Of a DNA stretch of 64,000 nucleotides, positions 56,319-57,559 are shown piece by piece; within the stretch, counting starts at the first letter, position 1, and every line of letters starts with the position of its first letter. The notes under the pieces were generated by a model that searched no databases, was not told the origin of the DNA, and saw only the letters and a list, made by a program, of their open reading frames with translations. The DNA comes from Shigella phage vb_GEC_SH_GT, in the sequence record OR887633; one strand, written 5' to 3'. The translations under genes were made by a program, and so were the position numbers.

Positions 56319-56792
56319 TTATTTGAATGATTTGACGTACTGAATAGAACCTTTACTATTCACGAAAGCGATTTTACCATTTTTATTATACATGGTAGCA
56401 GTACGCTGATAGCCATAAGTTTGTTTACCAGATTGATAACCAACTAATGCGAAATTATCTTCACCCATTTTATTCTGTTTAGAGCGAATACGTTCATGAC
56501 CGTGTGCCATAAGAACCTTAGCATCACCAGTTGAAATTGATCTACGAGTTTTTTCATCTTCAACTGTATTAACAAAGTCGTCAAATGAATCAAATTTAGC
56601 ATGGGATTTATTATACAGTTTTCCATCTACTGCATAATTATATCCCTGTACATCCATCTCAACTTCTGTACCATCATCCAATACAGCAGTAATTTTTTGA
56701 CCTTTTTTAAATTTCAAAAGATCAGTAAAAGATTCAGCAATAATTTGAGAATTAATAGCTGCTTCAGTGATAAATTCTTGATATGTTTTCAT
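56319..56792 (-). CDS. internal head protein (IP-like) with capsid targeting sequence
   Basis: N-terminus MKTYQEFITEAAINSQIIAE is a T4-type CTS cut by the prohead protease after the L-x-E motif. Confidence 0.6.
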   Translation of the reverse strand: MKTYQEFITEAAINSQIIAESFTDLLKFKKGQKITAVLDDGTEVEMDVQGYNYAVDGKLYNKSHAKFDSFDDFVNTVEDEKTRRSISTGDAKVLMAHGHERIRSKQNKMGEDNFALVGYQSGKQTYGYQRTATMYNKNGKIAFVNSKGSIQYVKSFK

Positions 56793-56801
56793 ATGTTTCC
56801 T

Positions 56802-57218
56802 TTAAATGTAAATATTTTTGCCGTAATACTTGTACCAGTGTGGCTTCATTAAAATTTTTTCATCGAGTCGTTGTTGACTCAATTTAATAGCTGATTTGCA
56901 TGGATTATAATCATTTTTCCATTCTGCTGGAATATCGCTGATGTCAGGAACTTCAGTATCTTTTATACTAAACCCACGTTTTAAGCATTCCGTTATAATG
57001 TCTGATTGACGCTTTCGCAAAAATTCTAACTTATCGTAAAAGAACGTAACATGACCAGAGCCTAAAATAAACTCGGAAGATATTTTAAAATCTTTAACCC
57101 GCTTACCATTTGCCACATGTTTACGAACTATACCAAAAACACGCGGCAATTCACGATACTCAGCCATAAGATGTTGGTCGGTCAGTTCAGAAACAAGTGT
57201 TAAATTGATACGAGTCAT
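56802..57218 (-). CDS. denV: endonuclease V (pyrimidine dimer DNA glycosylase) DenV
   Basis: Start trimmed to [12 protein letters not shown]...; 138 aa as T4 DenV; early promoter 57243..57275. Confidence 0.95.
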
Positions 57219-57242
57219 AATTTCCTCCAAGTAGTTGATGAA

Positions 57243-57275
57243 TGTATAGTATCAAAACCCTTGGAGGAAGTAAAC
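57243..57275 (-). promoter_or_regulatory. T4-type early promoter upstream of denV
   Basis: Minus strand GTTTAC...TACTATACAT. Confidence 0.55.
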
Positions 57276-57277
57276 AA

Positions 57278-57559
57278 CTATTTTTCTGAAGCGCCTGAAA
57301 TATATTTTTCAAGACGTTGTTTCATCAGCGAGCCGTTCTTAGCGATTTCTTCCGGTTTATCGCACATACGCAACAAGGCTTCAAGCTTAACGATATCACT
57401 GGTGCGCTCAAATTTGCGAGTATCTATCTTACTAGCAAGTTCAGAAATACGTGCTAATAGACTTTCGGCTTCAACCAAAGCTGCACCTAGCTTAGTTGCA
57501 AATGTGTCAGTAGCTTCGTTAAGAATAGATTCTGATAAAAATTCACTATATGTTTTCAT
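57278..57559 (-). CDS. internal head protein (IP-like) with capsid targeting sequence
   Basis: Trimmed start [16 protein letters not shown] (CTS); 93 aa. Confidence 0.55.

Follow-up and report, generated by a model that had tools for sequence, protein, structure and literature searches.

The interval between the lysozyme gene e and a vs.8-like gene of Shigella phage vb_GEC_SH_GT (OR887633; the 64,000 nucleotides analyzed here are referred to as the window) raises the question of what is encoded by two small open reading frames (ORFs) that flank the endonuclease V gene denV, and what their products do. The original prediction was that both ORFs start with the capsid targeting sequence (CTS) of T4 internal proteins (IPs), and the coordinates and start peptides agree with our analysis. 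Both genes are already named, annotated and widespread, one as Ip4 and the other as an Ip5-type 'internal head protein' (here called the Ip5-like protein), and RefSeq labels both as internal head or virion proteins; hence, the finding is not novel. To judge from their sequences, both products are very probably head proteins packaged by means of the CTS. By analogy with characterized IPs, they may also be anti-defense effectors, a reading that we somewhat favor.

The 157-aa ORF opens with MKTYQEFITEAAINSQIIAE; its first ten residues are MKTYQEFITE, and those of T4 IPII and IPIII are MKTYQEFIAE. In a five-way alignment that included both proteins as well as T4 IPII and IPIII, residues M1, K2, T3, Y4, E6, F7 and E10 were invariant, and the alignment with IPII and IPIII contained no conserved column beyond E10. 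The impression that the mature parts are unlike those of IPII and IPIII was thereby borne out. Mutagenesis of IPIII has assigned targeting to residues 4 and 7 and processing to residues 8 and 10 (reviewed in PMC9026906); Tyr4, Phe7 and the two processing residues are all present in both proteins, as expected of a true CTS. Residues 8–10 form an (L/I)xE motif, ITE in Ip4 and LSE in the Ip5-like protein, and a second such motif follows in each (IAE20 and LNE15, respectively). The cleavage motif is kept in the alignments of both families, even where neighboring residues vary: E10 and E20 are both invariant in the Ip4 family, and E15 of the (I/L)xE motif is invariant in the Ip5 family, in some members of which E10 is replaced by K or V. 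A motif list of Ip4 contained no (L/I)xE after residue 20. A six-frame scan of the whole 64 kb revealed three peptides of the form MKTY...EF..E, each of which opens an ORF (those of Ip4, the Ip5-like protein and gp61.1). That there are only three, all at ORF starts, argues that the CTS pattern is not due to chance.

Identification of the 157-aa protein as Ip4 was based on several matches. Its sequence hit the Pfam family DUF7412 (PF24183) with an E value of 1.8e-95 and a score of 317.8 bits (cut-off, 27) over positions 1–157 of 158, and PHROG 3155 'internal virion protein' was matched over the full length (2e-101). The protein is 98.7% identical to the products of the T2 gene annotated ip4 and the PP01 gene annotated ipIV, and 97% identical to UniProt Q38388, 'Ip4 [phage K3]'; the gene is annotated as ipIV in phage Kha5h as well. 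Ip4 was present in 470 of 50,697 phage records, with identities of 67–70% in Klebsiella (Jiaodavirus) and Salmonella (Gelderlandvirus) phages and of 61% in Serratia phage SP1. At 90% identity the family comprises 14 clusters, none of which falls below 61% identity to the query. Ip4 (IpIV) of T2 and K3 is said to go back to Repoila et al. in 1994. Similarity of Ip4 to the other IP families ends after the first 13–30 residues, save for weak matches (E about 0.01–0.04).

Beyond its own family, Pfam, NCBIfam, PDB sequences, a word search of 5.8 billion proteins and plasmids yielded no function for the protein, and when mature Ip4 was run in full with HMMER against 1.84 billion representative proteins, only five were found. 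By these searches the family is small and phage-restricted. The AlphaFold2 model of Ip4 is of moderate quality (pLDDT 70.7, pTM 0.63) and has an N-terminal helix ahead of beta-strand domains; no structural match and no recognizable fold emerged. Remote relatives of Ip4 (37–43% identity) from uncultured phages carry another CTS 'dialect', MNFxxFLNE. One of these, P0026, is a remote Ip4-cargo homologue 43% identical to Ip4 of the window, and a copy 95% identical to P0026 occurs on a 381-kb, jumbo-phage-sized viral contig (L012, IMGVR_UViG_3300011242_000001). There it sits in a cluster of four ORFs (5-421, + strand; 1828-2559, - strand; 2653-2904, + strand; 3001-3474, + strand), all of which begin with M-x-F-x-x-F-L-N-E.

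Evidence from virions was provided by a 2026 study in which purified particles of the Klebsiella Jiaodaviruses ValerieMcCarty03 and 04 were subjected to mass spectrometry (PMC13119998). In the accessible part of its supplementary peptide table, an Ip4 homologue, WKM80649.1 (69% identical; N-terminus MKTYQEFLNE-SRLATVGVMTE-SVGSNLLK...), occurs in at least 66 rows. The peptides are written there with flanking residues, and the table was analyzed by string counts, not row by row. The string 'ESRLATVG...LLK' was found at least 68 times and 'NESRLATVG...' at least 66 times, the latter in full-sequence rows only; the difference indicates that two of the WKM80649.1 peptides start at S11, directly after E10. 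Among the rows listed there was no peptide from the CTS (residues 1–10), the string 'TYQEFLNESR' occurring at least 66 times and in full-sequence rows only. Three virion peptides in the same rows span the second site, M-T-E22, which means that cleavage there is incomplete in the Klebsiella homologue. A second cut after E20 of Ip4, which conservation had made likely, may or may not take place, since these peptides span the matching site. The peptide pattern of this 69%-identical homologue is what the CTS model predicts, and the presence in virions with an N-terminus at residue 11 is in keeping with the original prediction. We regard Ip4 as almost certainly a CTS-packaged head protein.

The second protein, of 93 aa, matched PHROG 3499 'internal head protein' (1.2e-46) and no Pfam family; a weak match to PHROG 2667 (E 0.011) extended over residues 1–59. 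BLASTP against T2 Ip5 gave 48% identity over 84 aa (E 5e-23). At 80% identity or more the protein was found in about 238 phage records, in 132 of which the identity is at least 99%, and wherever a listed record was annotated, the match overlapped or adjoined the e lysozyme gene. The record of phage ime09 matches the 93-aa query at two places. The structure model is a three-helix bundle (pLDDT 79.2) for which Foldseek returned no match. From its CTS and the conserved motifs, the Ip5-like protein is quite probably packaged by the same route.

The possibility that the CTS is a recombination relic, such that one or both ORFs are expressed and left unpackaged, or are not functional genes at all, was weighed against these observations. 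Unrelated ip genes have CTS and leader in common down to the nucleotide sequence, which could reflect cassette exchange, and the early gene 61.1 has a CTS-like start for which no paper linking it to head packaging was found. Against such a relic speak the abundance of the Ip4 homologue in virions and its processing at E10, the intactness of both ORFs, which are identical or nearly so in hundreds of genomes, and the retention of the cleavage motifs where surrounding residues vary; a relic is thus very improbable. Gene 61.1 itself (11761-11925, - strand) lies just upstream of primase gene 61 and encodes 54 aa, starting with MKTYKEFIKE and continuing as a low-complexity acidic, lysine-rich tail. 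Its first 30 nt match the CTS of T4 ipII at 26 positions, and homologues were present in 1,396 phage records, those of Aeromonas phages included.

With both products taken as head proteins, the following route is proposed. The N-terminal CTS would dock the precursors onto the prohead scaffolding core, as shown for T4 IPIII and expected here from sequence likeness. The prohead protease gp21 would then cut after (L/I)xE and remove the CTS, a step for which the virion peptides speak in the case of the Ip4 homologue and which is presumed for the Ip5-like protein. The predicted products are a basic Ip4 cargo (about 15.5–16.5 kDa, pI 9.1–9.3) and a three-helix Ip5-like cargo (about 8.6–9.2 kDa, pI 6.3–8.1). 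The cargo would stay in the head and be ejected with the DNA. The head gene cluster lies outside the window; the related Tequatrovirus Bas37 lists a prohead protease and a scaffold.

What might the ejected cargo do? All four IPs characterized so far inhibit type IV restriction enzymes. T4 Ip1, Ip2 and Ip3 each inhibit a different GmrSD, without cross-protection (Silas et al., 2025, PMC12373910), and Bas37_0260 inhibits McrBC (bioRxiv 10.1101/2025.11.20.689424); infection of ECOR17 requires IPIII, which is active without its CTS if it is produced in the host cell (Srikant et al., 2022, PMC9391042). The original prediction had put forward divergent IP cargo as a candidate injected anti-defense protein, and the literature on Ip1–3 and Bas37_0260 agrees with it by analogy, which is not a demonstration. 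The window encodes a beta-glucosyl-HMC-alpha-glucosyltransferase of the T2/T6 type and an alpha-glucosyltransferase (16778-17626 and 29715-30917, both on the - strand), and in the annotation of Kha5h the corresponding region is without a T4-type beta-gt. Since both glucosyltransferases are encoded, hydroxymethylcytosine DNA with T2/T6-like glucosyl and gentiobiosyl groups is expected, and such phage DNA should be a target of type IV restriction. By analogy, each cargo would bind and block one host defense that acts at DNA entry, most likely a subtype of modification-dependent (type IV) restriction enzyme. In our estimation, the proposed chain as a whole, from packaging through anti-defense, is a little more probable than not to hold.

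Data from a relative bear on the Ip5 family. The product of bas37_0261 (L008, positions 1364-1621) was identified here as Ip5. When Bas37 on uropathogenic Escherichia coli (UPEC) strain CFT073 was compared with Bas37 on K-12 by HIDEN-SEQ, insertions in bas37_0261 were depleted (log2FC -2.09, adjusted p printed as 0.00000), and those in the downstream gene 0260 were enriched. On K-12, a strain on which the phage needs 0260, no depletion of 0261 insertions was seen; this speaks against polarity toward 0260. The depletion, left undiscussed in the main text of the preprint, hints at a role of the Ip5 family on certain wild hosts and may be the first Ip5 phenotype. The data set contains no values for Ip4 or the Ip5-like gene, as Bas37 lacks both at this locus. 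We also considered whether the Ip5-like protein is the published McrBC inhibitor; this was rejected, as bas37_0260 encodes a different protein and bas37_0261 is Ip5.

A number of points weigh against injected anti-restriction effectors. The anti-defense role of Ip4 and of this Ip5 relative is argued from analogy and is unproven. In the panel of GmrSD variants tested by Silas et al., ip4 to ip10 gave no reproducible inhibition, and T2, which carries Ip4, Ip5 and Ip7, was still restricted by the GmrSD of ECOR17 and ECOR21 (PMC12373910). The Ip4 cargo is 61–98% identical across Tequatrovirus, Jiaodavirus, Gelderlandvirus and a Serratia phage, which is unusual for an arms-race protein. As to the Ip5-like protein, no virion data were found, the CFT073 signal is an unvalidated supplementary-table value for a 48%-identical relative, and two more motifs, L-V-E30 and I-S-E40, lie inside helix 1, so that cleavage into fragments is possible.

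Some of these points would suit a structural role, in which both proteins are mainly parts for head assembly or DNA packing (scaffold helpers or charge-neutralizing basic proteins) with no specific host target, their injection being incidental. In T4 IPIII mutants, heads form at about half the normal rate, the burst falls to about 40% of normal and polyheads build up; moreover, gp22 and the IPs are purified together (PMC9026906); mature Ip4 is basic like IPII and IPIII, and both its strong conservation across genera and the negative GmrSD panel fit the same role. However, mature Ip5-like protein is near neutral and not DNA-binding-like, close relatives that lack one or both genes are viable (Bas37 has neither here, and T2 is without the Ip5-like gene), and every IP of known function is a restriction inhibitor. 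We consider a mainly structural role unlikely.

The conservation and the negative panel can be accommodated in a different manner, namely that both proteins are injected effectors with targets other than type IV restriction enzymes. Ip4 could then act on a conserved host factor or an early defense common to Escherichia, Klebsiella, Salmonella and Serratia, and the Ip5 family on a system of UPEC CFT073. Conservation of Ip4 extends over three phage genera with different hosts, remote homologues occur in uncultured phages, Ip5 insertions are depleted on CFT073, and Alt is a precedent of an injected T4 head protein that is a host-modifying enzyme (PMC9026906). On the other hand, neither Ip4 nor the Ip5-like protein revealed a catalytic motif or an enzyme-like fold, and the GmrSD panel sampled only part of the GmrSD and type IV families, whose diversity is very high. 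For the pair of proteins, targets of this sort seem doubtful. For Ip4 taken by itself, we entertain with slightly less reserve, as a tentative proposal, that it is not a GmrSD-type inhibitor and is directed at a conserved host factor or a widespread non-type-IV defense. Such a target would suit a cargo domain that hardly varies among T4-like phages of the four host genera, the other CTS dialect of the remote relatives and the unrecognizable fold; if true, the proposal would establish a functional class that is new among proteins delivered from the head. As a separate matter, UPEC CFT073 may possess a defense that is inhibited by Ip5-type proteins, of which the relative encoded beside e could represent a variant in specificity.

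The type IV anti-restriction reading, which we continue to prefer, sits well with the genomic setting, in that close relatives differ in which IP genes they possess, as one would expect of accessory genes for host range. Of the two variable ip loci, e-denV-vs.8 and 57B-tRNA, it is the former that harbors both genes, in the interval from e to the vs.8-like gene. Transcription of the minus strand passes, in this order, the two TATAAATA boxes, e, the 93-aa ORF, denV, the 157-aa ORF and the vs.8-like gene; read in this direction, the first IP gene falls within the e–denV interval, as happens in T4, and the second is downstream of denV. The original prediction was correct in that one IP is outside the e–denV interval and that the arrangement differs from that of T4 (Table 1), and it was mistaken in placing this gene upstream of denV, which is the case only in plus-strand coordinates. 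The 2 kb around the locus are 99.0–99.3% identical to Escherichia phages Kelasse, Kha5h and slur03 and 98.1% identical to ime09, many other phages being similar as well, and about 167 records share at least 80% of this stretch in one place. Kha5h is classified as a Tequatrovirus, and the source of the window is a Tequatrovirus with T2/T6-type DNA glucosylation. Kha5h carries a T4-type ipI at the 57B locus; the set of this lineage at the two examined ip loci is therefore IpI, the Ip5-like protein and Ip4.

To locate the breakpoints of the cassettes, blastn comparisons with T4, T2, Bas37, PKO111 and CGG4-1 were carried out. The locus is a mosaic of three independent cassettes between conserved flanks of about 94% identity (55600-56308 and 57561-58600). 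The denV gene shows about 75% nucleotide identity to T4 denV over the aligning part and 90.6% to that of Bas37. The e lysozyme has 162 aa and a C-terminus that is changed compared to T4 e (...TGTWKAYI), T4 homology resuming at 57561; a recombination junction inside the 3' end of e (57556-57575) accounts for the overlap of the e stop codon with the start codon of the Ip5-like gene as ATGA. A similar e/IP overlap occurs in Salmonella phage CGG4-1. Together with the 27 nt that precede them, the first 32 coding nt of ip4 match the 5' end of T4 ipII at 95% identity. This 27-nt block (56793-56819, - strand) is made up of the 18 nt with which the denV allele ends (AAA AAT ATT TAC ATT TAA; KNIYI-stop) plus the ribosome-binding site (RBS), and the same denV 3' end is found in the window and Bas37 alleles. 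The 27 nt upstream of T4 ipII (L002, positions 3720-3746) are identical to the denV end and ip4 RBS of the window. The T4 ipII leader is thus a relic of an ancestral denV–ip junction like that of the window, ipII now being upstream of denV. IP genes have been proposed to shuffle as cassettes via conserved leader, CTS and promoter-stem-loop sequences (Repoila, 1994, as cited in PMC4122927), and the leader shared by ipII and ip4 fits this long-standing idea.

Two TATAAATA boxes of the T4 late-promoter consensus precede e, no other TATAAATA was found between e and the end of ip4, and denV and ip4 are not separated by a promoter-sized gap. The boxes are likely the source of late transcripts through the IP genes. 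The leader of denV fits the PST/T4 PeSL promoter consensus TTTACW-N17-TAYWAT (PMC4122927) and is predicted to form a hairpin (dG -21.8 kcal/mol, z = -3.5) whose 3' arm covers the denV Shine-Dalgarno sequence; in T4 and in Salmonella phage CGG4-1, base changes occur in pairs that preserve the stem. The leader resembles a PeSL-type element situated at the boundary of a cassette. The denV RBS would be hidden in transcripts from upstream, i.e., from the late e promoters, and exposed if transcription started inside the loop. In the proposed scheme, the late promoters of e would drive late transcription of both IP genes, the denV promoter would provide early transcription of ip4 in addition, and the Ip5-like gene would be translationally coupled to e. 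Downstream of ip4, the product of the vs.8-like gene has a weak match to the terminase large subunit family PHROG_2 (2e-05), and its homologue in a Klebsiella phage is labeled 'putative terminase large subunit'.

Table 1. Features of the e–vs.8 interval in the window, and gene orders at the same locus in related phages.
Feature	Position	Strand	Basis or remark
Two T4 late-promoter consensus boxes (TATAAATA) upstream of e	58058-58078	-	same pair precedes T4 e
e lysozyme	57556-58044	-	ORF list
Ip5-like gene, 93-aa internal protein precursor	57278-57559	-	ORF; PHROG 3499; 48% to T2 Ip5
Ip5-like CTS and propeptide, residues 1–15, with L-S-E10 and (I/L)-x-E15	57515-57559	-	family alignment
denV leader: TTTACT (57269-57274), 17 nt, TACTAT (57246-57251), inside stem-loop	57223-57274	-	early promoter consensus
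denV (endonuclease V), non-T4 allele	56802-57218	-	Pfam Pyr_excise; PHROG 1183
ip4 RBS, AGGAAA	56796-56801	-	directly after denV stop codon (56802-56804)
ip4 gene, 157-aa internal protein precursor (Ip4/IpIV)	56319-56792	-	DUF7412; PHROG 3155; T2/K3 identity
Ip4 CTS, residues 1–10, ending in I-T-E cleavage motif	56763-56792	-	alignments; homologue virion peptides
Ip4 residues 11–20, ending in second possible protease site I-A-E20	56733-56762	-	family alignment; motif list
vs.8-like gene	55626-56213	-	downstream of ip4
ip4 cassette	56309-56800	.	missing from Bas37/KarlGJung (blastn)
denV and leader cassette	56801-57279	.	blastn
Ip5-like cassette	57280-57560	.	missing from Bas37 and T2 (blastn)
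T4 locus order			e-ipIII-ipII-denV
T2 locus order			e-ip4, without denV
Bas37 locus order			e-denV only, no IP gene here
PKO111 locus order			e-ip4-ip2
CGG4-1 locus order			e-ipX-denV-ip4-ipY

Internal proteins enter with the DNA before any phage gene is expressed and are thus the first line of the phage against restriction, and Ip4 is among the most widespread of them. The window holds no new gene, its arrangement being one common cassette combination. For specialists, the remaining question concerns the targets of Ip4 and the Ip5 family, which is directly testable; discovery of the targets would help to explain and predict the host range of T4-like therapy phages and could add new restriction inhibitors.

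Among known systems, T4 IPI*, IPII and IPIII share with the IPs of the window the same CTS, the same two hyperplastic loci and, very probably, the same packaging and processing route, and differ in their mature domains, which have no detectable sequence similarity to Ip4 or the Ip5-like protein. Bas37_0260, encoded at the ipI locus of phage KarlGJung, is likewise a small CTS-bearing IP of a Tequatrovirus, for which type IV anti-restriction has been demonstrated; its cargo looks unrelated and its locus is different. No significant likeness in sequence or fold of the mature domains was found to the characterized inhibitors IPI*, Ip2, Ip3 and Bas37_0260.

Closer counterparts are available in T2 and K3, whose Ip4 is the same protein, of 157 aa with 97–98.7% identity and an identical CTS. 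In T2 the gene is also within the e–vs.8 interval and directly follows e because T2 has no denV, whereas ip4 of the window follows denV. Ip5 of T2, RB70 and Bas37 belongs to the same family as the Ip5-like protein, with which it shares the conserved (I/L)xE15, but the latter forms a distinct subgroup of 93 instead of 80–85 aa, with a C-terminal extension and E10 present, and is encoded next to e, whereas T2 Ip5 is encoded beside 57B at the other IP locus (57B/ipI). For both subgroups, the model computed from their joint alignment predicts a three-helix bundle.

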